DNA of 52,683 bases from Ichthyobacteriaceae bacterium (lineage in GTDB: Bacteria; Bacteroidota; Bacteroidia; Flavobacteriales; JADGDT01): NCBI GenBank assembly GCA_023145615.1, contig JAGLDK010000032.1, forward strand, positions 1 to 52,683, given 5' to 3'. Below, piece by piece: positions 15,531-37,690 of this stretch. The notes under the pieces were generated by a model. It was given only the letters and a program-made list of their open reading frames with translations. It was not told the origin of the DNA and searched no databases. The number at the start of each line of letters is the position of its first letter. The first letter of the stretch is position 1. The position numbers and the translations under genes were made by a program.

Positions 15531-16111
15531 TGATGAGAATAAATAAAAGTAAAATATTATTGAAAAGCATTGCTGCCATTTTTATGGGAGCAATGCTTTT
15601 TTCGTGTGAAAATGATATGAAAAAGGTAAAGGAAATTACCAATACTGATATTAACACCGACAATAAAATTACTGAACTTAATATGGTTTATACCGATTCG
15701 GGTATTGTTAAATTAAGATTGTTAGCACCTATTGCAATAATTCACGAAGGAGAAGAAAAGCCTTTTAGAGAGTTTCCGGAAGGGTTAGAAGTGTTTTTTT
15801 ACAAAGACAGAGATACTGTGGTTGAAAATTACATTAAATCGGATTATGGAATTAGTTGGGGAAAAGAAAAACTTGCCGAACTAAAAGGAAATGTAATAGT
15901 TGTAAATACCGACGGAGATACTATTAAAACCGAACAAGCTTTTTGGGACTCGAAAAAAAAGATTATTTATTCTGATAAGCAGGTTCGTATTATTCAAGAA
16001 AATCAGGAAATTATAGGTAAAGATGGTTTCGAAGCCGATGAATCTTTTTCGTACTACACCATACTAAATTCTTCGGGAGATATAAATGTTGACAATGATG
16101 AAGGTAAATAA
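15530..16111 (+). CDS. lptC: LPS export ABC transporter periplasmic protein LptC (lipoprotein type)
   Basis: Lipobox-like AMLFSC, YTDSG, EFPEGLEVFFY, GNVIVVN..GDTIKTEQAFWD beta-jellyroll pattern. Start overlaps the TPR stop (TAATG). Confidence 0.82.
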   Translation: MMRINKSKILLKSIAAIFMGAMLFSCENDMKKVKEITNTDINTDNKITELNMVYTDSGIVKLRLLAPIAIIHEGEEKPFREFPEGLEVFFYKDRDTVVENYIKSDYGISWGKEKLAELKGNVIVVNTDGDTIKTEQAFWDSKKKIIYSDKQVRIIQENQEIIGKDGFEADESFSYYTILNSSGDINVDNDEGK

Positions 16112-16222
16112 GTAAAGGTTAATTAGCTAATACCTTAAAATCTCATTGTCTTAATTTTTTATTAATATAAAAAGTAGTGTCTGTTATTTAAACAAATATT
16201 GATATAATTGAATGCCTATATT

Positions 16223-17488
16223 ATGGTTGAAAAAATAGTTATAATTGTAATTACTATATTGTTATCTGCGTTTTTTTCGGGTATGGAAATTGCGTTTGTA
16301 ACAGCCAATAGACTTCAGCTTGAACTTGAAAAAAAACAAGGAAATTGGTTTTCGGGTATTGTTACAAAGCTAACAAAACACAGTAGTAAGTTTATTACAA
16401 CCATGCTTGTTGGTAATAATGTGGCATTGGTTGTGTACGGTATTGTTATGGGAGATTTAATTATTTCCTTATTATTTCCGCAGTATATAAATTCAAATGT
16501 ATATCCTATTTGGGTGCTTTTGGTGCAAACTGTAATATCAACTTTGGTTATTTTGGTTACTGCCGAATTTATTCCGAAGGCAATTTTTAGAGTTTATGCC
16601 AATGAATTGCTTGAATTTTTTGCCATACCTGCATTTATAATTTTTTATCTGTTTTACTTTCTATCAAGTTTTATTGTTTGGCTTTCTAAAATAGCTATCA
16701 GACTAATTACTGGTACAAATTTAGAGGAGGAAGTTGAGGTTTTTAGAAAAGTAGATTTGGGTAATTATATTTCGGAGCAAATAGAAACTACCGCACAAAA
16801 AGAAGAAATGGATGTTGAAATACAAATGTTTCAGAATGCTTTAGATTTTGGAGGTGTTAAAGCCCGAGAGTGTATGATTCCTCGTACCGAAATTATAAGT
16901 ATTGATGTTAATGCAACATTAAACGAGTTGAAAAACGTTTTTGTGTCGACAGGTAAATCTAAGATTTTGGTGCACGATAGCGATATTGACGATATAATTG
17001 GTTATGTTCATTCTTTCGAGATGTTTAAGAAGCCGAAGGAAATTAAGAGTATTTTATTGCCTGTTGAATTTGTGCCCGAAACTATTCCGGTAAACGAATT
17101 ACTTGCAACATTAATGCGTAAGCACCGTTCGGTAGCTTTGGTTTTAGATGAATATGGTGGTACAAGCGGATTAATTACTATTGAAGATATTGTTGAAGAG
17201 TTGTTTGGAGAAATAGAAGATGAACACGATAATGATGTTTTAGTAGAGAATGTAATATCAGAAACCGAATTTATTTTTGCTGCAAGGCTTGAAATAGATT
17301 ATGTAAACGAAAAATATAAGTTAAATATACCCGAAAATGAGGAGTATGAAACTATTGGAGGTTGTGTTTTGCATAATTTACAAGATATACCCGAAAAAAA
17401 TCAAACTTTAATTATTGAAGGATATAGGTTTAAAGTGTTACAGGTTTCGAATAATAGGATAGAAGAAGTTGAAATAAGTAAGTTGTAA
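16223..17488 (+). CDS. Hemolysin-family / CNNM (DUF21)-CBS-CorC membrane protein
   Basis: SAFFSGMEIAF, MLVGNN, AEFIPK, MIPRTEI and VLDEYGGTSGLITIEDIVEELFGEIEDE. Confidence 0.9.
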   Translation: MVEKIVIIVITILLSAFFSGMEIAFVTANRLQLELEKKQGNWFSGIVTKLTKHSSKFITTMLVGNNVALVVYGIVMGDLIISLLFPQYINSNVYPIWVLLVQTVISTLVILVTAEFIPKAIFRVYANELLEFFAIPAFIIFYLFYFLSSFIVWLSKIAIRLITGTNLEEEVEVFRKVDLGNYISEQIETTAQKEEMDVEIQMFQNALDFGGVKARECMIPRTEIISIDVNATLNELKNVFVSTGKSKILVHDSDIDDIIGYVHSFEMFKKPKEIKSILLPVEFVPETIPVNELLATLMRKHRSVALVLDEYGGTSGLITIEDIVEELFGEIEDEHDNDVLVENVISETEFIFAARLEIDYVNEKYKLNIPENEEYETIGGCVLHNLQDIPEKNQTLIIEGYRFKVLQVSNNRIEEVEISKL

Positions 17489-17644
17489 TAGGTTGGATTT
17501 ATGATTATATAAACTTTATATTGTTTTTTAAATTTTATATGACGAATAAGAGTTTAAAATGAATAAACATAGTATTTCATTATTAAATTTAAAAATGTAT
17601 TTTCGCCTTCTATATTAAGTAAATAAAACTAATTAAAAATAATA

Positions 17645-19798
17645 ATGGCAGCATTAAATCAAATACGAGCTAAGTCTGGTTGGCTAATTGTAATAATAGG
17701 TTTTGCATTGTTTGCATTTGTACTAGGAGATCTTGTAAAATCAGGTACTTCAATTATGAATGGTAACCGCACAGTGGTTGGAGTTATCGATGGTAAAGAA
17801 ATTTCGTATCAGGAGTTTAACCCTGAAGTGAAAAGAACACTTGATGCTTATAAAAGACAAGGATTAAATTCTACAACTCAAGCATCGAATATTGCTTGGA
17901 ATAATATGGAGCAAACTGTATTAGTTGATAACGAAATTGAAAAACTAGGAATTAATATTGGAGAAGAGGAACTTTGGGATTTAATAATTAATGATGCTAG
18001 TATTCAAAATGCACCTTCGTTTAAAAATGCTGCAGGTACTTTCGACGAAAACAAAGTAAAAGAGTACTTGGCTTATTTACGTCAAAATGCTGGATCGAAC
18101 GCACAAGCTGGTCAGCTTTGGTACGATTGGGTAAACTTCGAAAAGTCGTTAAAAGAACGTAGTATTGTTAATAATTACTATAACCTAATTAAGGCAGGTA
18201 TTAGTGCTACTGATGTTGAAGGTGAAACTGAATACAAAAACAGTAGCGATAAAGTAAGTGCTAAATATGTTTACTTACCTTATAGCGGTGTTGATAATAA
18301 AGATGTGAAAGTTTCGGATAGCGAAATTAAAAGTTACATTTCTAATAATCAAGACGAATTTAAAGCTGATGCTAGTAGAGATATTCAATATGTATTTTTT
18401 GCCTTAGAAGCTTCGTTAAATGACGAGCAGAAAGCAAAAGAAGAAGTTGAATTTTTAATAAAAGATCGTGAGGAGTTTAATAACTCAACAAAAAGTAACG
18501 ATGTTATTTCTGGATTTAAAAATACTACAGAAGATTCATTATTTGTATCTGTAAAATCGGATGTTAGATTTGATAGTAAATTTTACCACGAAGGAGCTTT
18601 AACTAACGATCTTAACAAATTTGCTTTTGCTGCAAAGGTTGGAGATATTTATGGTCCTTATAAAGATGGTAATGCTTATGCTGTATCAAAATTAATTGAC
18701 ACTAAGGTTATGCCAGATTCTGTTAAGGCAAGTCACATACTTATATCTTACAAAGGAAGTCAATCTGCAAAGCCTGAAACTACTCGTACAATTGACGAGG
18801 CTAAAAATTTAGCTGATAGTTTAGCAAATGTACTTAATAAAACATCAAGCAAATTTGTTGAATTAGCAACTGATTTTTCTGAAGGACCTACTGCTACTAA
18901 AGGTGGAGATTTAGGTTGGTTTACTAACGGTACAATGGTTCCTGAATTTAACCAATATGCTTTTGCTAATAAAAAAGGAAGCATTGGAGTTGTTAAAACT
19001 GTTTTTGGATACCACGTTATAAAAATTGAAGATCAAAAAAACATTGCTAAAGCTGTTAAGTTAGCTACTATTGTTAGAAATATTGTAATATCTGACGATA
19101 CTGATAATGATGTTTACAACAAGGCATCGGCTTTTAATAATTCAAATAAAGATCTTGCTTCTTTCGGAGCTGCTGCACAAGCTAAGTCTTACCAATTAAG
19201 AAACGTTGAAGGACTTACTGCTATGGATTATAATATTCCTGGTATTGGAGATCAAAGAGAAATTATACGTTGGGCATTTAACGAAGATACTAAGATTGAG
19301 GAAACAAAATTAAAGTCGGTAGAAAATGGTTACTTAGTAGCTATGCTTACTAATAAATCAGTTGAAGGTTTAAAATCGGTAGACGTTGTACGTGCTCAGG
19401 TTGAACCATTATTGATTAACGAAAAAAAGGCGGCTATTTTAGAGGAGAAGTTAAAAGGAAAAACTTTAGATGCTATTGCTGCATCGGCTAAAGTAGAAGT
19501 TAAAACTGCAAACAGCATTAGTTTCAGCAACCCTGTACTTGCAGGAGCTGGACGTGAGCCAAAAGTAGTTGGAGAAATGTTCGGAATGAAAAAGAACGTT
19601 GTATCTGAGCCTATTGAAGGTAAAAACGGAGTGTACGTTGTAGAGGTAACAGAAGCTAAATCAGCAACTGATTTATCAAACTACGCATCATATACCAAAA
19701 AACTTGAAGGTACTCAGAAATCATCTGTAAACAGAAACGTAGTACCAGCATTAAGAAACTCAGTACAGATTACTGATAACCGTGCAAAATTCTACTAG
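17645..19798 (+). CDS. ppiD: PpiD-like membrane-anchored parvulin peptidyl-prolyl isomerase/chaperone
   Basis: N-terminal TM anchor, SurA_N-like region, VKASHILI...GGDLGWF...MVPEF...TVFGYHVIKI. Confidence 0.85.
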   Translation: MAALNQIRAKSGWLIVIIGFALFAFVLGDLVKSGTSIMNGNRTVVGVIDGKEISYQEFNPEVKRTLDAYKRQGLNSTTQASNIAWNNMEQTVLVDNEIEKLGINIGEEELWDLIINDASIQNAPSFKNAAGTFDENKVKEYLAYLRQNAGSNAQAGQLWYDWVNFEKSLKERSIVNNYYNLIKAGISATDVEGETEYKNSSDKVSAKYVYLPYSGVDNKDVKVSDSEIKSYISNNQDEFKADASRDIQYVFFALEASLNDEQKAKEEVEFLIKDREEFNNSTKSNDVISGFKNTTEDSLFVSVKSDVRFDSKFYHEGALTNDLNKFAFAAKVGDIYGPYKDGNAYAVSKLIDTKVMPDSVKASHILISYKGSQSAKPETTRTIDEAKNLADSLANVLNKTSSKFVELATDFSEGPTATKGGDLGWFTNGTMVPEFNQYAFANKKGSIGVVKTVFGYHVIKIEDQKNIAKAVKLATIVRNIVISDDTDNDVYNKASAFNNSNKDLASFGAAAQAKSYQLRNVEGLTAMDYNIPGIGDQREIIRWAFNEDTKIEETKLKSVENGYLVAMLTNKSVEGLKSVDVVRAQVEPLLINEKKAAILEEKLKGKTLDAIAASAKVEVKTANSISFSNPVLAGAGREPKVVGEMFGMKKNVVSEPIEGKNGVYVVEVTEAKSATDLSNYASYTKKLEGTQKSSVNRNVVPALRNSVQITDNRAKFY

Positions 19799-28179: not shown

Positions 28180-29058
28180 TTATTTTTTTATTTCTTCCGA
28201 ACGCATTGCATCTCTATTAATGTGTTCCATTTTCCATTCTTTATAAACCCCTAAAACTTCAACCTTTTCGGCCTGATGTTTCATAATTTCCATAACCGAT
28301 TTAAAAGTATCGTAAGTAGGAAATTCAAGATCAACAAAGAAATTATACTGCCACGGTTTTTCCATAATTGGCATCGATTGAATTTTTGTTAAATTCATTC
28401 CATGTATCGAAAATATAGATAATACCTTAGCCAAACTACCTTTTTCATGACTTAACACAATTCTCATTGATGCCTTGTTAATTTCGGGGTTTGCTGTATA
28501 ATTATGCTTGTGCGTTCCTATTATAAAAAAACGAGTATAATTGTTTTTTATAGTTTGTATGTTGGTTTTTATTGCTTCAAGACCATAAATTTCTCCAGCA
28601 ATTTCTCCAGCAATTGCACCAACATCTTTCAAATTTTTATCTGCAACTTTTTTTGCCGACGATGCAGTGTCAGTTTCCTCAACAAGTTTAATGTGTGGAT
28701 ACTGTTCGAAAAACTGTTCGCTTTGCAAAATAGCCATTGGATGAGAATGAACCTCTTTTAAATCTTCAATAGTTTGCCCTTTATTTACAAGTAAACTATG
28801 CTCAATAGGAATGTAAATTTCTCCTTGTATACATTGCCCTTTTTGTCCAAGTAACTTGTAATTTTGAAGCAACGATCCAGCAATTGAATTTTCAATAGCC
28901 ATTACTCCATACTGTGCAGTACCATTTGTTATATGTTGAGGAATTTCCTTAAAATTTTCGCATTGAACCAAATCAACTTCTTCTCCAAAAAACATACGTG
29001 CTGCTTGGTGGTGATAACTTCCTTTAATTCCCTGAATTGCTACTTTTTTCTTTTCCAT
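28180..29058 (-). CDS. pheA: Prephenate dehydratase with ACT domain
   Basis: AIQGIKGSYH, AIENSIAGS, SHPMAILQ, NYTRF and NLTKIQSMP. Confidence 0.94.
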   Translation of the reverse strand: MEKKKVAIQGIKGSYHHQAARMFFGEEVDLVQCENFKEIPQHITNGTAQYGVMAIENSIAGSLLQNYKLLGQKGQCIQGEIYIPIEHSLLVNKGQTIEDLKEVHSHPMAILQSEQFFEQYPHIKLVEETDTASSAKKVADKNLKDVGAIAGEIAGEIYGLEAIKTNIQTIKNNYTRFFIIGTHKHNYTANPEINKASMRIVLSHEKGSLAKVLSIFSIHGMNLTKIQSMPIMEKPWQYNFFVDLEFPTYDTFKSVMEIMKHQAEKVEVLGVYKEWKMEHINRDAMRSEEIKK

Positions 29059-29077
29059 TACTCTCTCTCATTCAATC

Positions 29078-29113
29078 AAAAAAATCCCGCTTCAAAAATT
29101 TTGAGCGGGATTT
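29078..29113 (-). terminator. Attenuator terminator upstream of pheA
   Basis: Minus strand AAATCCCGCTCAAAATTTTTGAAGCGGGA-T7, ending about 20 nt before the pheA ATG. Confidence 0.85.
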
Positions 29114-29141
29114 AATGTTTATCGTTTTTAACCTTTACATA

Positions 29142-29216
29142 CTAAATCCCGCTCTTTCTTCCATAGAAGAAAAAGTAAAAGAAATTATTTAAATATGATT
29201 CGGTTAATAAATTCAT
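29142..29216 (-). CDS. Phe/Tyr attenuation leader peptide, 24 aa MNLLTESYLNNFFYFFFYGRKSGI
   Basis: Translated by hand. Seven consecutive Phe/Tyr codons. Its 3' end GAGCGGGATTTA is complementary to the terminator 5' arm. Confidence 0.88.
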   Translation of the reverse strand: MNLLTESYLNNFFYFFFYGRKSGI

Positions 29217-29240
29217 CTGTTTCGTTTTTTATTACTTCGA

Positions 29241-29270
29241 CAAAAGTAAAAATATTTTCGAGACTACAAA
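29241..29270 (-). promoter_or_regulatory. sigma-A promoter of the leader-pheA operon
   Basis: Minus strand TTTG (29270-29267), N18, TACTTTTG (29248-29241), 24 nt before the leader ATG. Confidence 0.7.
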
Positions 29271-29853
29271 TATTATTTTCAAATATTTTAAATCAATTGT
29301 TGTTGCAGTTTGCAGTAGTAAAATCAACTTTAACTAACACTATTTGTGTAAAATTCATTATTATACTTCATATTAGTTATTGTTGGGCTGTAGTAACTTG
29401 TAGTAAGCTTACATTTTAGAATAAAAACATAATTTTTATAAATACAAATTATCGGTGTATTTATAATGTATATATCGTTTTTAGGCTGAATTTACTTGTT
29501 GTATATCGAATTTAGTAGGGTTGTTAAAATAAGTAATGGTCAAATTTTAATTATCAATAGTTAATTATCTAAAACCTCATGGGTTATAAAACTATGTACA
29601 CAAATAATTCTGTTATATCTCTTACATGATTATTTAAATGTATTAAACACCAATTTATTTATCACATTTTTTGTAAAACATCTATTAATTATTGTTGTAT
29701 GATTTGATGTTTGTTGCTTATGTTTTTATTGTTTCTGAAGTTGTTAATTGTTTTACGGGCTTTATATCAGTAGTTTATCAAAAAAAACTCTTATATTTCT
29801 TATAGTAAAACTAAGCGTATTAAGCTAATTAACCCAAATAAGAAACCTTTAAT

Positions 29854-31359
29854 ATGAAAAACAACAACAAATCTCCAAAACCATTTGATTGCAACTACGA
29901 TCCACAATTTGCTCTTTTATTAGATAAACTTGGTATTTCGCTTGCAATAAGTACTTATCAGGCTGGTAAAATAGTTTTTTTAAGTTCGGTTAACGAGGAT
30001 AAATTAGTACAACTTCCAAGAAATTACAAAACTGCAATGGGAATGGCTTCTGCCGATAATAAACTTGCCATTGCTGCTGAAAATAAAGTAACCGTTTTGC
30101 ATAACCGCCCTGAATTAGCAGAAAATTATGCTGCTGGTAATAATAAATACGATGGAATTTACATTCCTACTGCAACATATAATACAGGAGGTATTGATTT
30201 GCACGACATGGAATTTATAGACGATAAGCTTGTTGCTGTAAATACTAAATATTCGTGCTTATCGTATATTGATGATAATTATAGTTTTACTCCGTTTTGG
30301 CAACCACCTTTTATTACCGGTATGGTGCCCGAAGATAGATGCCATTTAAATGGAATGGCTGTTGAAAATAACGAAATAAAGTATGTTACTGCCTTAGGAA
30401 AAGGAAATACCGAAATGCAGTGGAGAGAAGATAAAATGAATAGCGGTATTTTAATGGAATATCCATCGGGTAAAATTATTATTGATGGCTTAAGTATGCC
30501 ACATTCTCCACGAATTTACAATGGTAAATTATATGTGTTAAACTCGGCTAAAGGAGAACTTATTTGTGTTGATACCGAAAAACAAACTTACGAGGTTGTT
30601 GTTAAATTAGGTGGTTTTGCACGAGGAATGTCTCAACACGGAGATTATTTATTTATAGGAGTATCTAAACTACGACATAATAGTGCTGTTTTTAGTGATT
30701 TAGAAATTGCTAAAACATCGTTTGCCGGAGTTGTTGCAGTTTATTTACCATATAATAGTATTGCCGGACGTTTTGAATATGAAATGACAGTTGATGAGAT
30801 TTACGATGTAAAAGTATTATCAAACTCAACACGACCTTCAATTTTATCTCCCGAAATGGTTGATGATAATTTAAATATTACCTATCCTGGAGGTGCTTTG
30901 TGGCAAAACAAAGAAGAAGGTTCTGAAAAATCAGAGAATAAAAATAGTACGGTTAACTCAAAAGATGAAAATGTTGAACCCGAAAAGTTCTCTTTCAAAC
31001 TATTAAGTAATATAGGTATAGATAAATTATTAGCTGATTTTTCTCCACTTATTATACCCGAGTTAAAAAAGAATTTACGAGCAAATACTACATATAATAC
31101 ACTGCATGTTTTGGCAACAATAAATAGCAAAAATCAGGCAGTAGCAATTACGGTTTTCGATGTTGATGAAAATAAAGAAGCCTCTATACTATCGATATTT
31201 GTGCACAATGATATGAGAAATCAAAAAATAGCTAAAAATATGGTGCGTCAGTTCAATATTTTAATAGAACGAAATAATATTAATTCTATTGAATTAAGTA
31301 GTGAATATTCTAATAAAATAGCTGTAAAAATAATGCAGTCTATTTTGGTTACTAACTAA
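29854..31359 (+). CDS. TIGR03032/DUF4915-family protein with C-terminal GNAT-like domain
   Basis: SLAISTYQAGK, TGGIDLHDM, VNTKYSCL, SFTPFWQPPFI..MVPEDRCHLNGMA, GLSMPHSPR and GFARG. Charged linker, then SIFVHNDMRNQKIAKNMV. No signal peptide. Confidence 0.88.
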   Translation: MKNNNKSPKPFDCNYDPQFALLLDKLGISLAISTYQAGKIVFLSSVNEDKLVQLPRNYKTAMGMASADNKLAIAAENKVTVLHNRPELAENYAAGNNKYDGIYIPTATYNTGGIDLHDMEFIDDKLVAVNTKYSCLSYIDDNYSFTPFWQPPFITGMVPEDRCHLNGMAVENNEIKYVTALGKGNTEMQWREDKMNSGILMEYPSGKIIIDGLSMPHSPRIYNGKLYVLNSAKGELICVDTEKQTYEVVVKLGGFARGMSQHGDYLFIGVSKLRHNSAVFSDLEIAKTSFAGVVAVYLPYNSIAGRFEYEMTVDEIYDVKVLSNSTRPSILSPEMVDDNLNITYPGGALWQNKEEGSEKSENKNSTVNSKDENVEPEKFSFKLLSNIGIDKLLADFSPLIIPELKKNLRANTTYNTLHVLATINSKNQAVAITVFDVDENKEASILSIFVHNDMRNQKIAKNMVRQFNILIERNNINSIELSSEYSNKIAVKIMQSILVTN

Positions 31360-31394
31360 AATGTTATGTAAGCAAATATTATATAAAACTTAAA

Positions 31395-31434
31395 AAAAGC
31401 TGAATGATATAGTTAAATATATCATTCGGCTTTT
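31395..31434 (+). terminator. Terminator-like hairpin after the TIGR03032 gene
   Basis: AAAAGCTGAATGATATA-GTTAAA-TATATCATTCGGCTTTT. Confidence 0.65.
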
Positions 31435-31632
31435 ATTGATAATTGAGTATTACTATCAAATTTATTTGGAATTTATTGTGTTTGTTGGTTTACTAAAAAT
31501 AGATGCTTTGTAAGCTAGTACACTTTAAATTTTGTAATAATACTTAAAAACAACTTTATGCTTTATTTGTTACAAAGCATAAATGGTAAAATCTACAACA
31601 GATACTCTAAAATATAAATAACCCAAATTACT

Positions 31633-34600
31633 ATGAAAAAGAAGTATATGTTTTTTTCTGGCGCTAGACGTTGGAATACATTGATTAATAAATTTAATAA
31701 TTTATATAAATCAATAAAGGAGGGAGTTGAAAATGAAGTTAAGCTTCAGCAAAAAATCAACAAACTCCAAGTATTATATACTAGGTTAGAAAAAATGCAG
31801 TACAAAACTGGGTTTCAAATTGCAAGTACTTCTTTGGCGGTTATGTTATCAACTGCATCGGTGTATTCTCAAACTCCAATTGAGTTGTTAAGTGGAGTAA
31901 ATATTCAGCAAGAAATTTCGGAAGGATCTAATACTTTCAATGACATTAATATAGGTAACCATTCGGCACCTGTATTTGTTTTTATTGATGCCGATGAGTA
32001 TGTTGATTTAGTAGTTGGTACGCAAAATGGTTATGTAAAAGTATTTAAAGGAAATGCCGATAATACTTTTAGTACAGGGTATAATTTACAAGCAGGAGGT
32101 GCCGATATTAATGTTGGATCTTTTGCTACTCCAACTTTTACTGATATTAATAACAATGCTAAAGTTGATTTGGTAGTTGGTAATAAAGATGGTAAAATAA
32201 ATGTTTTTAGGCGTGATGCTAATAATAACTTTAATGGAGGTTATTTGTTATCGGCAGGAGGAACAGTTATTGATGTTGGAAATTCATCGGCACCTGCATT
32301 TTCGGATATCGACGAGGATGGGAATGTTGATTTGATTGTTGGCGATCAATACGGATACTTGCAAGTTTTTAAAGGAGGAGCATCAAATACTTTTAATGCC
32401 GGTTATAATTTAGAAGTTAGTGGAAGTGAAGTTTCTGTTAATTCTTATTCGAAACCAACTTTTGCGGATATTGATACCGATGGAAATATTGATTTAATAG
32501 TTGGAGATAAAAGAGGGTATTTAGCTGTTTTTAGAGGTAATGAAGATTTTACATTTGGAGGTTCGTACTTGTTAGAAGTTGATGAAAAAAATGCTGACGT
32601 AGGAGAATATTCATCTCCTGTTTTGGTGGATTTTGATGGCGATGGAGATATTGATTTAATATCGGGAAATGAAGCTGGAAACGTAATTTTATATAAGAGT
32701 GTAGTAGGTCAGTTACCCGAAATTAGTGTTTTAGGAAACGATGTTGAAATAGTTGATGGAGATATTATTTCGAGTTATACTGATAATACATTCTTTGGAA
32801 ATAATGAAACTGAAAACGCATTTAAAGAAAACACCTTTGTTATTAAAAACGAAGGAGATGCAGTATTAGAATTAACCGATTTAGGAACAGGATTTGTTAC
32901 AATTAGCGGAGCAAATGCCGATGACTTTACAGTAGTAACTCAACCCGAAACCGATATTGCAGTTGGTGATGAATCTGTTTTTGTTATAAGTTTTAATCCG
33001 TCAGAAACTGGAGAAAGAAACGCCACTATAACAATAAATAATAACGACTTAAACGAATCGGAATACACTTTTGCTATTCAGGGTGGAGGAACAACTATTA
33101 TGCCTATTGATTTAATGTTGGGTGTTAATATTGAGGCCGAAACTTTAGAAGGGTCTAATGTTTTCGAGATTATTAATGATGAAGAATACCGAATTCCAAC
33201 TTTTGCAGATATTGATGGAGATGGAAATCAGGATTTAATTATTGGAGAATTTGGAGGGTATATAAAGGTGTTTAAGGCAAACGAAAATAACACTTTTAAA
33301 ACTGGCTATAATTTACAATCTAATAATTATGATATTAAAGTAGAATCGGGTGCAGCTGTAACGTTTGCCGATGTTAATGCCGATGAAAGTATTGATGTTA
33401 TTGTTGGAGAAATTGGAGGAACAATTAGAGTATTTGAAAATAAAGGAGATAATACTTTTGATGTGCCATATAATTTGCAAGCAAATGGTGTTGATTTAAG
33501 CATTGAATATGCTAAACCTGTTTTTGAAGATGTTGATGGCGATGGGTTTATTGATTTAGTTGTTGGAGAAAAAGGAGGTGCTATATTAGTTCATACAGGA
33601 AATTCGGATAACACTTTTAATTCGGCATACACTTTACAAGCCGGAGAAAAGGAAATAAAAGTTTCAGGAAATAGTGCTCCAACTTTTGCTGATGTTGATA
33701 ATGATGGGAATAAGGATTTAGTAGTAGGTGCTTTTTTAGGAAATATTACTGTATTTAAAGGAAATGCAAACCATACTTTTGCAAGCGGATATAATTTAAA
33801 AATTGATGATGTTAATATAAATGTTGGTCAATATTCTGCTCCGGTTTTTGTTGATTTCGACAATGATGGAGATATTGATTTAATTTCGGGTAGTAATAAT
33901 GGAAGTGTTAAGTTGTTTAAAAACAAAATGTACACATCGCCTGAAATTAGCATTGTTGCAAAATCGGTTGAAATTATAAATGGAGATAATACTCCAAGTA
34001 TTTCAAATGACACTTATTTTGGAGCAAACGAAATTGAAAGCACTCATATAGATAAGGTTTTTACAATAAGAAATTTAGGAGATACTGAACTTAAATTATC
34101 AGATATAGGAGGGAAGTATGCTAATATTACAGGCGATACCGATGAGTTTGCAATTATTACTCAGCCTAATGCCGTTATTGAACCAGGAACTTCAACAAAC
34201 TTTACAATTAGATTTAATCCAACTTCGGTAGGAAATAAATTTGCCCAAATAATTATTGCTAACAACGATACTGATGAGGCATTATTCTCGTTCGATATAA
34301 AAGGATTAGGAACTAAATCTACACCAATTATACTTCAGCCCGGAGTAAAAGTTAATTACAAAACTACTGCCGAACCAATTACATTCAATAATATTGATAT
34401 AGGTACTTTGTCGGCACCGGCATTTGCCGATATTGATAACGATGGAATTAAAGATTTAGTTATAGGAGGAAAATCAGGGTTTATAAATATTTGTAAAGGA
34501 AACTCGGATGGCGGATTTGCCGAGGCTTATAATTTACAATCGAATGGAGCTGATATAAATGTTGGAATGAATTCTACCCCAACTTTTATTGATGTTGATA

Positions 34601-37524
34601 ACGATGGAGATGAAGATTTGGTTGTTGGAAATATGACAGGTAAAGTAACCGTTTTTAAAGGCGATGTTTTTCATCCATTTGACACAAGTTACGATATAGA
34701 GGTTGATGGAAGTGTAACATACACATCTCCAGCTTTTGCTGATATCGACAACGATGGAAATGTTGATTTAGTTGTTGGTGTTAAATCAGGAGAAATAAAA
34801 ATACTTGATGGAAAGGCTGATAATATGTTTAACGAAATTTATCATAATATAGAATTTGCCAATGGTACCGAACTCGAAAATATAGGAAGTCAAAGCCCAA
34901 CACCATCGTTTGCCGATGTTGATGGAGATGGAAATGTAGATTTGATTGTTGGTTTATGGAACGGAAAAATAAATGTTTATAGAGGAAATTCGGATAACAC
35001 TTTTAACTCTCCGTACTTATTAAAAATAGAAGATGGAACAGTAATTGATTTAGCTAATACTTCGGCACCGGTTTTTGTTGATTTCGATGATGATGGAGAT
35101 GTTGATTTAATTTCGGGAGATAGTTATGGAAATGTAACTTTTTTCGAAAATGGAATTTCTCAATCAATTACATTTAACAATTTTGATGATGCCGTTTACG
35201 GAGACGAAGATATTTTGTTAGAAGCAACATCTAATATTCCTGATTTAGTAGTTACGTTTAGTAGTAGTAACGAGGAAGTTGCCACAATAGTAGATGGTAA
35301 AATTCATGTTACTGGAGCGGGTACTTGTAATATTATAGCAAGTCAATATGGAAGTTCGGAATATGCAAATGCACCTATTGTATCAAAAGAATTTAAGGTT
35401 GATAAAAAGGACGTTTCGGTTATAGCTGTTGACGTAGAAAAGGTTTATAACGGAGATGTTTATGCCGATTTAATTAGTGGAACATTAGAAGGTGTAATTT
35501 CGGATGATGATGTTAGTGTAGGTATATTAAACGTTGTTGTAGAATTTGAAACGTATAATGTAGGAACCGATTTGCCAGTGGCTTTATCAGAGTTAATTCT
35601 TAAAGGAAACGATGCAAATAACTATTCAATATTGCCTCATCCATCAGGATTAGTTGCCGATATTACTCCAAAAGAACTTATTGTAAGTGGAGTTACTGCA
35701 ACTGATAAAATATACAACGCAAATACCGATGTTGTAATTGATTTAACCGGTGCTATGTTAAGTAATTTAGTTGCAGAAGATAACGTAACTGTTAATTATG
35801 ATTTGGCAACAGCACATTTTAATGATAAAAATGCAGGTATAGATAAGCAAATTACAGTATCGGATTTTAGTATAAGCGGTGAGGATGCAATAAATTATAG
35901 TATTTCTCAGCAAACATTTACAGCCGATATTACTCCGCTAACAATTACTGTGCCCGGAATAAATGCAGTTAATAAAATTTATAATGGAGATGCTTTTGCA
36001 GTTTTAAAAGGAGGAATATTAACAGGTGTTATTGAAGGAGATGAAGCAAGTATGAATTATGAAGATTCGGTTGCAGAATTTGAAGATGAAAATGTTGGTA
36101 TTGAAAAATCGGTTACCACAACATCAATAGCCTTAAGCGGAATTGATGAAGGAAATTATACGGTAGAGTTACCACCTGTTTTAATAGCCGATATAGTTGC
36201 AAAAGTACTTACCGTTACTGCCAATAATATAGAAGTGGCTTATAACGAAGTAATTCCGGAATTAACTTTTACTTACGATGGTTTTATTGATGAAGAAGAT
36301 GAAACATTTTTAACAACAATACCAGAAATATCAACAGATGCAACTGCGTTTAGCGATGAAGGAAATTATGATATTGTAGTTTCGGGTGGTTTAGCTGATA
36401 ACTATAGGTTGGTTTATGTTTCGGGAAGTTTAACCGTTGGAATACTTACTCTTGATGAAGATGTTTTATACGATATAGCATTAGAGGTTAGAGAAAATAT
36501 AACAGATTTCCCTACCGCAAATAATGGAGATATTATAGGTACAACAACCGACGATTTGGTTTATTATATTCCGGGTAACTATGTTATTAATTGGGAATTT
36601 ACCGATATAAATGGAGTTGTATTTACTCAAACTCAAAATATAATTGTTTACAGAATTTACGAACAAGCAGGAGTTTTAAATGTTGTTGTTGATGGCGATT
36701 TTGAAACTCAGTGGTATGTTGGAGATAAACCTGTAAGTGGAGGAACAAACACACTTACTTTCGAGCCTACAATTGATGGTGTTTATACTATTGCTTTTAT
36801 AAACGACTCAACAAATACAAAATCGAAAGGAGTAGTTGTAGGAGAACCTGATACTACAAATCCTATTCCTGATATTTTAAATTTGCAAAGTATTTTGGTT
36901 GAGGTTGATAAAAATATAGTTGATATTCCTACTGCCGATAATGGTGTAATTACCGCATTTACTTCAGATGAAATTAGTTTCGAAACTTACGGAACATATC
37001 AAGTAAATTGGAATTATGTTGATTATAGTTTTAATTCGTTTACACAACGTCAGGAGGTTGTAGCATTTAGCGTTGTAGAGGAACAGAAGGGCGTTTTTAA
37101 AGTTAATATTGAAGGAGAATTTAATTATCAATGGTATGTTGATGGTGTGGAAATTGCCGATGCAAATTCTAACACATACAAGCCAAGTGCTGTAGGTGTT
37201 TATAATGTAGAGGTTAGCTCTAATGTAAGTAAGGCTTTTTCTAGAAGTATTTCTTTTGGTATTTTGGCTGTTGATAAATTTTATAACGAAACCAATAATT
37301 TATCTGCTTGTCCTAATCCTACCACTAATAATGTTATTATAAAAAATAACAATCAAAAATTATTAGATATACAGGTGTACGATTCGAAGAGTATACTTTT
37401 TACTAAAGTGATTTCTGATAATTCAGAGGTAGAGCTAGATTTATCAACCTGCCCAGGTGGTGTACTTATGGTTTTAATAAAAAGCGATGATGAGGTTGTG
37501 GTAAAAAAGATAATTAAAAAGTAA
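31633..37524 (+). CDS. Large T9SS-secreted adhesin-like protein: 3 x [5 FG-GAP/VCBS repeats], 2 choice-of-anchor-D Ig domains, a Big-like domain, 3 YDG-like, MBG-like, 2 x (HYR-like + Ig), CTD
   Basis: 15 P.F.D.D.DG..DL..G repeats; PEI...DGD...FG...F.I.N.G domains; K.YN..T/D repeats; LTVTAN...Y...P..TFTYDGF; CTD CPNP...VKKIIKK. Confidence 0.88.
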   Translation: MKKKYMFFSGARRWNTLINKFNNLYKSIKEGVENEVKLQQKINKLQVLYTRLEKMQYKTGFQIASTSLAVMLSTASVYSQTPIELLSGVNIQQEISEGSNTFNDINIGNHSAPVFVFIDADEYVDLVVGTQNGYVKVFKGNADNTFSTGYNLQAGGADINVGSFATPTFTDINNNAKVDLVVGNKDGKINVFRRDANNNFNGGYLLSAGGTVIDVGNSSAPAFSDIDEDGNVDLIVGDQYGYLQVFKGGASNTFNAGYNLEVSGSEVSVNSYSKPTFADIDTDGNIDLIVGDKRGYLAVFRGNEDFTFGGSYLLEVDEKNADVGEYSSPVLVDFDGDGDIDLISGNEAGNVILYKSVVGQLPEISVLGNDVEIVDGDIISSYTDNTFFGNNETENAFKENTFVIKNEGDAVLELTDLGTGFVTISGANADDFTVVTQPETDIAVGDESVFVISFNPSETGERNATITINNNDLNESEYTFAIQGGGTTIMPIDLMLGVNIEAETLEGSNVFEIINDEEYRIPTFADIDGDGNQDLIIGEFGGYIKVFKANENNTFKTGYNLQSNNYDIKVESGAAVTFADVNADESIDVIVGEIGGTIRVFENKGDNTFDVPYNLQANGVDLSIEYAKPVFEDVDGDGFIDLVVGEKGGAILVHTGNSDNTFNSAYTLQAGEKEIKVSGNSAPTFADVDNDGNKDLVVGAFLGNITVFKGNANHTFASGYNLKIDDVNINVGQYSAPVFVDFDNDGDIDLISGSNNGSVKLFKNKMYTSPEISIVAKSVEIINGDNTPSISNDTYFGANEIESTHIDKVFTIRNLGDTELKLSDIGGKYANITGDTDEFAIITQPNAVIEPGTSTNFTIRFNPTSVGNKFAQIIIANNDTDEALFSFDIKGLGTKSTPIILQPGVKVNYKTTAEPITFNNIDIGTLSAPAFADIDNDGIKDLVIGGKSGFINICKGNSDGGFAEAYNLQSNGADINVGMNSTPTFIDVDNDGDEDLVVGNMTGKVTVFKGDVFHPFDTSYDIEVDGSVTYTSPAFADIDNDGNVDLVVGVKSGEIKILDGKADNMFNEIYHNIEFANGTELENIGSQSPTPSFADVDGDGNVDLIVGLWNGKINVYRGNSDNTFNSPYLLKIEDGTVIDLANTSAPVFVDFDDDGDVDLISGDSYGNVTFFENGISQSITFNNFDDAVYGDEDILLEATSNIPDLVVTFSSSNEEVATIVDGKIHVTGAGTCNIIASQYGSSEYANAPIVSKEFKVDKKDVSVIAVDVEKVYNGDVYADLISGTLEGVISDDDVSVGILNVVVEFETYNVGTDLPVALSELILKGNDANNYSILPHPSGLVADITPKELIVSGVTATDKIYNANTDVVIDLTGAMLSNLVAEDNVTVNYDLATAHFNDKNAGIDKQITVSDFSISGEDAINYSISQQTFTADITPLTITVPGINAVNKIYNGDAFAVLKGGILTGVIEGDEASMNYEDSVAEFEDENVGIEKSVTTTSIALSGIDEGNYTVELPPVLIADIVAKVLTVTANNIEVAYNEVIPELTFTYDGFIDEEDETFLTTIPEISTDATAFSDEGNYDIVVSGGLADNYRLVYVSGSLTVGILTLDEDVLYDIALEVRENITDFPTANNGDIIGTTTDDLVYYIPGNYVINWEFTDINGVVFTQTQNIIVYRIYEQAGVLNVVVDGDFETQWYVGDKPVSGGTNTLTFEPTIDGVYTIAFINDSTNTKSKGVVVGEPDTTNPIPDILNLQSILVEVDKNIVDIPTADNGVITAFTSDEISFETYGTYQVNWNYVDYSFNSFTQRQEVVAFSVVEEQKGVFKVNIEGEFNYQWYVDGVEIADANSNTYKPSAVGVYNVEVSSNVSKAFSRSISFGILAVDKFYNETNNLSACPNPTTNNVIIKNNNQKLLDIQVYDSKSILFTKVISDNSEVELDLSTCPGGVLMVLIKSDDEVVVKKIIKK

Positions 37525-37561
37525 AGTATTTAATTCTTATTAAGAATTAAGCAAAAGTAAA

Positions 37562-37620
37562 AAAGGTGTATAATTTATATAAAGTTGATAAAATCATCTT
37601 TATATAAATTATACACCTTT
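37562..37620. terminator. 23-bp perfect inverted repeat between convergent genes (probable bidirectional terminator)
   Basis: AAAGGTGTATAATTTATATAAAG-N13-CTTTATATAAATTATACACCTTT. Confidence 0.65.
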
Positions 37621-37690
37621 AGTGTTTTTTATGTTTTTAATATAAAAACTAAAATAGTTAGTTAAACTAGTTTAGCCAATAAAAAAGATA

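Follow-up and report, generated by a model that had tools for sequence, protein, structure and literature searches.

Two adjacent genes, referred to here as gene 1 and gene 2, lie on the same strand of a 52,683-nt stretch of DNA from an Ichthyobacteriaceae bacterium (GenBank assembly GCA_023145615.1, contig JAGLDK010000032.1, positions 1 to 52,683, forward strand); “the window” means that whole stretch. Gene 1 encodes a cytoplasmic protein with a TIGR03032/DUF4915 domain and a GNAT-like tail, and gene 2 encodes a giant exported protein with FG-GAP repeats, a C-terminal sorting domain of the type IX secretion system (T9SS) and a long N-terminal extension, the leader (coordinates in Table 1). 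An original prediction, made from the letters of the window alone, had presented the pair as a candidate undescribed system in which gene 1 helps to mature the product of gene 2. Sequence comparisons across many genomes point very strongly to a functional coupling between TIGR03032 proteins and leader-bearing FG-GAP proteins.

Gene 2 has multiple FG-GAP/FG-GAP_3 repeats: PF13517 (FG-GAP_3) matches it with 175 bits in 10 stretches and PF01839 with 65.8 bits. Further domains are choice-of-anchor D (two), YDG (three) and MBG_2. Its C-terminus scores as a T9SS sorting domain with both TIGR04183 (31.1 bits, cut-off 23) and PF18962 (27.2 bits, threshold 27). Only four FG-GAP-like frames occur in its own 2.1-Mb genome. 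A 1631-aa paralogue of gene 2 lies on contig C29 of genome G000 (28654-33546, minus strand); its C-terminal sorting domain is of the same kind, and its N-terminal extension of ~50 aa is a different one that the leader profile does not match.

The “leader” in this context is the first 80 residues of gene 2, in which ~55 residues precede a hydrophobic core. An AlphaFold2 model of it has three helices (pLDDT 84), laid out as a helix at aa ~13-30, a second at aa ~35-59 and a hydrophobic one at aa ~65-78, followed by S-Q. The general pattern is an aromatic/basic helix, a turn and second basic helix, and a hydrophobic core ending in A/S/G-Q, and the Gln after the core is invariant in 32 aligned leaders. 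Signal peptidase I cleavage in front of Gln is a habit of Bacteroidota, and the leader would be cleaved before Q80. An iterated leader profile converged on 53 of the 956 open reading frames (ORFs) of TIGR03032 loci, gene 2 included (76 bits), and in gene 2's own genome only one of 5343 six-frame segments matches it at E<0.01, namely gene 2. Scans of gene 2 aa 1-86 (E up to 10) gave three unrelated weak matches in Pfam and one in NCBIfam, and nothing else. Judged from these alignments and scans, the leader is a conserved family so far without annotation. We also considered a mis-called start, with the true start at Met55; this is rejected, as residues 12-54 show protein-level conservation in 52 other TIGR03032-adjacent ORFs.

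The proteins that carry the leader are mostly FG-GAP proteins. Among those of at least 300 aa (n=46), FG-GAP_3 is found in 42, FG-GAP in 37, Por_Secre_tail in 33 and CHU_C in 7. A word-based search of a large protein collection added 28 more leader proteins, of which 27 have FG-GAP families and 27 a T9SS C-terminal domain. When 1.84 billion representatives were searched exhaustively with the leader profile, 476 clusters matched at E<=0.001 (155 at E<=1e-10); of the 150 best library matches, all but one (149) have the leader starting no later than residue 37. The domains, the sorting domain and the conserved leader all bear out the description of gene 2 as an exported giant FG-GAP T9SS protein with an abnormal N-terminal extension.

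We fetched 80 Bacteroidota loci via a TIGR03032 alignment and made six-frame searches around the TIGR03032 domain; cultured carriers among them include Marinilabilia salmonicolor JCM 21150 (L037), Fulvivirga marina 29W222 (L066) and Fulvivirga kasyanovii JCM 16186 (L068). The ORF directly 3' of it is usually a relative of gene 2, with similarity covering gene 2 residues 1-80. Of the 80 loci, 49 have a leader no more than 3.5 kb from the TIGR03032 domain, 39 have FG-GAP-like sequence nearby and 50 have at least one of the two; if only loci with 4.5 kb or more of downstream sequence are counted, the last figure is 37 of 54. Leader matches are mostly downstream of TIGR03032 on the same strand (45/54). 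When 1045 ORFs from 90 loci were clustered without bias, the FG-GAP/leader family came out as the commonest TIGR03032 neighbour (52 loci), followed by TPR-GT41 (14), NAD-dependent epimerase (13), cytochrome P450 (12), PAPS-reductase-like (11) and acyl carrier protein (ACP; 10). A neighbourhood survey of TIGR03032 for FG-GAP/T9SS genes had been proposed beforehand as a check on the idea of a two-gene system, and with 50/80 loci the survey favours that idea.

Other genes recur at these loci. GNAT is fused or adjacent to TIGR03032 in 22 of the 80 Bacteroidota loci, several of which have separate ~300-aa GNAT genes directly 3' of TIGR03032, and one genome has the gene order TIGR03032, GNAT, FG-GAP protein. 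GT41 is present in 9 of the 80. In Fulvivirga/Cyclobacteriaceae-type loci (L063, L066, L068, L070, L081, L086, L090, L100), ACP and P450 genes stand about 0-1.5 kb downstream of TIGR03032, with the leader-bearing FG-GAP gene beyond them, a hint that the modification in that clade may be acyl or oxidative. GT41 followed by TIGR03032 is the order in a second Bacteroidota clade (G100, G172, G184, G236), with FG-GAP/T9SS proteins ~4 kb off. These proteins (L115:12910-16008 and 16282-19383; L114:1764-4919; L116:12723-15908; L117:3685-6789) have a second type of extension, with ~65 aa before the signal-peptide core, which is unrelated to the leader and conserved among the four genomes. Beside the genes are ORFs of 82-90 aa (L114:5236-5487; L115:12614-12886 and 16023-16271) that end in Pro-Ile-Asp-Gly-Gly-Leu-Gly, a hydrophobic stretch and a basic tail, which we take to resemble a PEP-CTERM/PID-CTERM-type sorting signal.

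The association extends beyond Bacteroidota. In a Pseudomonadota sample, TIGR03032 exceeded its cut-off in 39 of 401 genomes, and we took 20 loci. An FG-GAP protein lies within 3.9 kb of TIGR03032 in seven of them, and both of the Pseudomonadota FG-GAP giants that were scanned against Pfam contain RTX repeats. In 6/20, a TPR-GT41 glycosyltransferase is within 600 bp of TIGR03032, and at one locus (L171:9018-12461) a 1147-aa TPR-GT41-DUF4915 fusion adjoins a 2207-aa FG-GAP/RTX protein. TIGR03032 and GT41 both have matches in Synechococcus elongatus, a control genome. The original statement that TIGR03032 recurs beside FG-GAP proteins in other phyla holds in the Bacteroidota and Pseudomonadota surveys. 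These comparisons leave TIGR03032 and its FG-GAP client as the apparent constants, with a second enzyme that varies and a leader that looks like a Bacteroidota-type addition.

The leader also follows TIGR03032 when the two are not linked. Seventeen Bacteroidota loci with enough sequence had no leader or FG-GAP gene nearby, and whole-genome searches of 10 of these found leader-bearing frames elsewhere in all 10, with the same helix/core/Q layout. Among 10 TIGR03032-negative genomes (four from the same genus as the window and six from the same order), every candidate was scored and no leader was found at E<=0.001; the single match in this set, at E 0.008, is a frame without a signal-peptide-like segment. 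A 401-genome Bacteroidota sample, in which TIGR03032 exceeded its cut-off in 10 genomes, gave three full-length leader matches, all within those 10, and four further partial matches (E 2e-4 to 5e-4); no more than 14 candidates from each genome were scored in this search, which makes its negatives weaker than those of the whole-genome searches. We give co-occurrence as counts with no probability, as related genomes are not independent.

Gene 1 and gene 2 seem to travel together, judging by their closest relatives: in a tree of 110 TIGR03032 domains the group of gene 1 consists of loci L025-L028, each with leader, FG-GAP and GNAT, and these loci also supply the best matches of gene 2. The four same-genus genomes (75-99% complete) have neither TIGR03032 nor the leader. 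At either edge of the block they carry different genes and synteny breaks, on contigs that are short, so the block's position can be called a variable spot. Base composition shows no sign of recent import of the pair.

Gene 1 is the sole TIGR03032 copy in its genome and scores far above the cut-offs of the hidden Markov models (HMMs) for its family: 367.3 bits with PF16261 DUF4915 (cut-off 35) and 359.3 bits with TIGR03032 (cut-off 251.5), over aa 13-340. Eleven polar residues, H117, T131, D161, C163, H164, N166, H217, R257, S271, R274 and E315, are invariant across 110 TIGR03032 domains that diverge to ~30% identity, and so are G167, M215, P216 and P219, which fall with some of the others in the EDRCHLNG and MPHSPR regions. 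Both the curated HMM scores and the invariant motifs place gene 1 in TIGR03032/DUF4915 as a full member. Its translation has no hydrophobic N-terminal segment, and scans with Pfam/NCBIfam-type HMMs found no DNA-binding or signalling domain. Gene 1 is therefore as first described in this part: a protein without a signal peptide that carries a TIGR03032 domain with both motifs.

The AlphaFold2 model of gene 1 (mean pLDDT 86) is all-beta at aa ~9-330, followed by a disordered linker (aa 354-375) and a beta/alpha tail. Foldseek assigns the model to the six-bladed propellers with probability 1.00, with Kelch and YWTD among the top folds. Superposition with VIA-align agrees, placing it with six-bladed beta-propellers of the YWTD/NHL/SGL type: YWTD propellers of nidogen and LRP come first (best 1npe_A: Z 22.7, rmsd 3.0, 238 residues), lactonases, NHL domains (NHLRC2) and PAL score Z ~18.5-20, and more than 40 further propellers score Z 17-22. 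Sequence does not assign gene 1 to the SGL, NHL, strictosidine synthase, PAL or YWTD families; the leads from a protein atlas were NHL, Str_synth and SGL, with every score <0.9, and a profile of the gene 1-family alignment (A1) had no match among PDB sequences at E<=0.1. The TIGR03032 domain folds like metal-dependent propeller enzymes. The conserved residues suggest an enzyme, as propeller enzymes with a central site have one or a few such residues per blade, and the gene 1 propeller is probably one of these, with its active site at the propeller centre.

The tail of gene 1 is GNAT-like by weak matches. The rimI model hits it with E 1.8e-5, and PF00583 narrowly misses its gathering score (20.5 vs 20.7 bits, aa 415-492). 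A GNAT-like tail is common to many of the listed homologues of ~500 aa and ~670 aa, which have precomputed PF00583/PF13508/PF13673 matches. In the model, aa 380-499 have a mixed beta/alpha pattern with pLDDT mostly 74-92, and fold searches were filled by the propeller. The acetyl-CoA loop motif of GNAT is Q/R-x-x-G-x-G/A. At the motif-A position in alignment A1, gene 1 has R-N-Q-K-I-A, P0012 has R-K-Q-G-I-A and P0019 has R-R-K-G-L-A, so gene 1 fails the motif, with Lys in place of the conserved Gly. The GNAT-like tail that had been claimed for gene 1 is therefore there as a weak match, but it reaches neither the PF00583 threshold nor the loop motif.

The ORFs and flanking genes are consistent with the original description of a same-strand two-gene block between housekeeping loci. 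Upstream are prephenate dehydratase and aminotransferase genes, both on the minus strand, and downstream are an OxyR-like LysR regulator (a best match, below the cut-off) and gcvP. The non-coding region in front of gene 1, first given as ~580 nt, is in fact 795 nt long.

Table 1. Features of the two-gene block and its surroundings, with positions counted from the first letter of the window.
Feature	Position	Strand	Description
Divergent intergenic region before gene 1	29059-29853		795 nt; holds dispersed repeat
Dispersed repeat, ~100 nt	~29523-29637		Inside the 795-nt intergenic region; from blastn against contigs of the same genome
Gene 1	29854-31359	+	501-aa cytoplasmic TIGR03032/DUF4915 protein with GNAT-like tail
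TIGR03032 domain	29890-30873	+	aa 13-340; HMM matches; modelled six-bladed beta-propeller
GNAT-like C-terminal domain	30991-31350	+	aa ~380-499; weak HMM matches and model
Intergenic spacer between genes 1 and 2			273 nt
Terminator-like hairpin between genes 1 and 2	31392-31437	+	A-run, 17-bp stem, UUUUAUU
Short dispersed repeat in gene 1-gene 2 spacer	31455-31553		3 further genome copies
Gene 2	31633-37524	+	1963-aa exported FG-GAP, choice-of-anchor-D, YDG, MBG protein with T9SS sorting domain
Leader	31633-31872	+	Gene 2 aa 1-80; leader profile and model
T9SS type A C-terminal sorting domain	37312-37521	+	aa 1894-1963 of 1963; TIGR04183
Long hairpin 3' of gene 2, then U-run	~37562-37620		

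Both hairpins noted at first sight are real. The one between the genes, originally placed at 31395-31434, folds as a 46-nt inverted repeat with 23-nt arms at -22.8 kcal/mol (z -9.0), which none of 200 shuffles equals; the terminator rule of our promoter/terminator scan missed this AT-rich hairpin. The long one behind gene 2 was found by folding: the 116 nt that contain it (37525-37640) reach -36.3 kcal/mol (z -8.3), and its opposite-strand self-match has 92% identity. For the repeat in the 795-nt region, blastn gives 21 further matches elsewhere in the genome, on other contigs (72-91% identity); it may be a regulatory element common to these sites or a small dispersed repeat. Copies of the repeat in the spacer are on contigs C49, C72 and C65 (74-77% identity). 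An Rfam scan of 29000-31700 gave chance matches below threshold and no family for the 795-nt region or its repeat. Neither gene has an exact TAnnTTTG motif in its upstream region, and a sigma-70-type promoter scan was uninformative (49 sites vs 50.4 expected). Just upstream of the minus-strand prephenate dehydratase gene, two overlapping inverted repeats with 15- and 19-nt arms (29079-29154) may be a Phe-operon attenuator; they have a Leu-leader-like Rfam match below threshold (20 bits vs 50).

Our preferred reading is that genes 1 and 2 are a conserved pair in which a propeller enzyme with a diverged GNAT-like domain acts on an FG-GAP client, and we give this reading as a whole an even chance. 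The client, gene 2, would be a surface protein with FG-GAP repeats whose export goes first through Sec and next through the T9SS. Its leader would form a basic helical hairpin ahead of the signal-peptide core, kept on the cytoplasmic side until export, and would hold the preprotein back or dock it, letting the TIGR03032 protein act before translocation. GNAT would co-act here and a GT41 glycosyltransferase in other lineages. We put action of the gene 1 product on the preprotein in the cytoplasm at slightly better than even, and a role for the leader as a hold-back or recognition element at somewhat below even.

This scheme would make sense of where the leader is found. Clients of the type I secretion system (T1SS) remain cytoplasmic until their C-terminus is made, but Sec clients are able to leave early. 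A basic helical pre-sequence could delay or control the targeting of a Sec client and offer the enzyme a docking site, which would explain why the leader occurs with TIGR03032 in T9SS clients and is absent on RTX-type clients. The boldest form of the proposal, which we offer tentatively and think likelier to be wrong than right, is a previously unrecognised, leader-guided cytoplasmic maturation of a subset of T9SS cargo, in which a metal-dependent propeller and GNAT/GT41/acyl-carrier partners covalently modify FG-GAP adhesins before Sec, and the same enzyme serves T1SS FG-GAP/RTX giants in Proteobacteria.

Several observations weigh against the preferred reading. With respect to the leader, its sole invariant residue is the Gln following the hydrophobic core, which leaves no obvious modification site. 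Nor do all TIGR03032 systems have the leader: the GT41 clade G100, G172, G184 and G236 carries its different N-terminal extension, and in G331 a full leader gene is 120 kb from TIGR03032, where the adjacent FG-GAP gene has a short basic N-terminus only. Among the 20 Pseudomonadota loci, none has a leader and 10 have no FG-GAP or GT41 within ~9 kb. With respect to gene 1, the propeller fold is equally common to pure binding modules (YWTD, Kelch) and so does not by itself argue for an enzyme over a binding module. The GNAT tail is just below threshold in Pfam, and the Lys in place of a loop Gly that relatives keep makes its activity doubtful; it may be inactive. In this genome, a strong terminator-like hairpin and a 273-nt spacer part the two genes, so the two may not be co-transcribed; in many relatives the gap between the two genes is 12-90 nt. 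A search of sequencing runs listed six DNA runs from two studies that contain the stretch or part of it, and no RNA run. The weaker negatives of the 401-genome search also count here. A complex prediction for TIGR03032 (aa 1-345) with the leader scored 0.00, in a run made without controls, and counts neither for nor against the reading.

The first alternative keeps the pairing and drops the chemistry. TIGR03032 would be a non-catalytic holdase or targeting adaptor whose propeller binds the leader or the unfolded FG-GAP repeats and keeps the giant export-competent. In favour of this, YWTD and Kelch propellers, which bind ligands, head the fold matches; no residue that could be modified is conserved in the leader; the GNAT tail of gene 1 seems degenerate; and many loci consist of TIGR03032 and client alone, with no second enzyme. 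However, 11 invariant polar residues, among them three His, an Asp and a Cys, fit an active or metal site better than a peptide-binding face, and the recurrent fusion or adjacency with GT41, GNAT and ACP plus P450 points to chemistry. We therefore regard a holdase or adaptor as unlikely.

Those partner enzymes could instead make something other than a modified protein. If TIGR03032, GT41, GNAT, epimerase and ACP/P450 produced a glycan or small molecule that the FG-GAP protein binds or is anchored by, the protein itself would be unmodified and the link between the genes indirect. The NAD-dependent sugar epimerase, PAPS-reductase-like, P450 and ACP neighbours (13, 11, 12 and 10 loci) fit metabolite or glycan synthesis, and FG-GAP propellers are typically ligand-binding. 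This explanation leaves a cytoplasm-facing leader that tracks TIGR03032 (10/10 vs 0/10 genomes) unaccounted for, and TPR-GT41 enzymes are protein glycosyltransferases in described cases, so we consider it improbable.

A third explanation makes the leader a signalling element that stays in the membrane after cleavage, as a helical hairpin plus membrane helix, and reports adhesin export to the TIGR03032 protein. Such a hairpin and transmembrane helix are what the model predicts, and leader and TIGR03032 do co-occur. Gene 1, however, has no DNA-binding or signalling domain in the HMM scans, and TIGR03032 also stands beside leaderless T1SS-type FG-GAP/RTX proteins in Pseudomonadota, which speaks for the FG-GAP body, not the leader, as the common denominator; we rate signalling as very improbable. 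That the genes are chance neighbours, two unrelated accessory genes in one variable spot between housekeeping genes, can practically be dismissed in spite of the terminator-like hairpin between them and the synteny break there in same-genus genomes, as the pairing recurs in 50/80 Bacteroidota loci vs four FG-GAP-like frames in a whole 2.1-Mb genome and as leader and TIGR03032 co-occur even unlinked.

Of the original proposal that gene 1 is a dedicated cytoplasmic maturation factor for the adhesin, the partner part is thus well supported, by the linkage (52/90 loci), the co-occurrence (10/10 vs 0/10) and the GNAT/GT41 neighbours, and the modifier-or-chaperone part stays a proposal. TIGR03032/DUF4915 is a large family without an assigned function (more than 5000 clusters at 90% identity matched a gene 1 query), and it gains a concrete client bearing a dedicated N-terminal tag. 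If the preferred reading is true, T9SS surface proteins would pass through a cytoplasmic step that depends on the leader, and there would be one more case of giant adhesins prepared before export, alongside HMW1C and accessory Sec. With the leader profile, start codons and signal peptides can also be annotated better in hundreds of FG-GAP proteins (476 clusters). A full-text literature search found no mention of TIGR03032 or DUF4915 and nothing joining FG-GAP with GT41, and the titles and opening lines of abstracts on extended signal peptides and T9SS mention no T9SS leader.

The original prediction had likened the pair to adhesins with extended signal peptides and their accessory factors, and since the extension proved to be a conserved leader, the analogy is a good one. 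HMW1 of Haemophilus influenzae is a large adhesin with an unusually long signal peptide, encoded beside the cytoplasmic GT41 enzyme HMW1C, which modifies it before export. The likeness lies in a large secreted adhesin with a long N-terminal signal region next to a cytoplasmic partner proposed to act on it, and in the GT41 genes adjacent to or fused with TIGR03032 in other lineages. The differences are that the window's own genome (68% complete) has no GT41 (PF13844) match, that an FG-GAP T9SS protein takes the place of a two-partner-secretion beta-helix as client, and that the constant partner is a beta-propeller.

The accessory Sec system of Gram-positive serine-rich-repeat adhesins uses a KxYKxGKxW extended signal peptide and modification by cytoplasmic GtfA/GtfB before export. 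Common to both is an extended, family-specific N-terminal signal region that marks a giant adhesin, but leader aa 1-86 have no match to the KxYKxGKxW NCBIfam model, the phylum is another and the outer-membrane route here is the T9SS. ESPR, found on autotransporters and two-partner-secretion proteins, is an extension before an ordinary signal peptide and is thought to slow or control inner-membrane translocation. Like the leader, it stands ahead of the signal peptide on very large surface proteins; unlike it, the leader is longer, forms a helical hairpin in the model and tracks a specific cytoplasmic protein, and aa 1-86 have no match to the Pfam ESPR model.

Gene 1 has its fold in common with six-bladed propeller enzymes and binding modules, but its conserved set (three His, Asp, Cys, Asn, two Arg, Glu) is its own. 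With respect to gene 2, bacterial integrin-type FG-GAP propeller proteins have been described (Chouhan et al. 2011, PMC3192720); gene 2 has many like FG-GAP/Ca-loop repeats, and the abstract of that paper mentions no leader or cytoplasmic partner. The gene pair therefore lies outside the HMW1C, accessory-Sec and ESPR families by the matches above, but by analogy it would work like them in outline.

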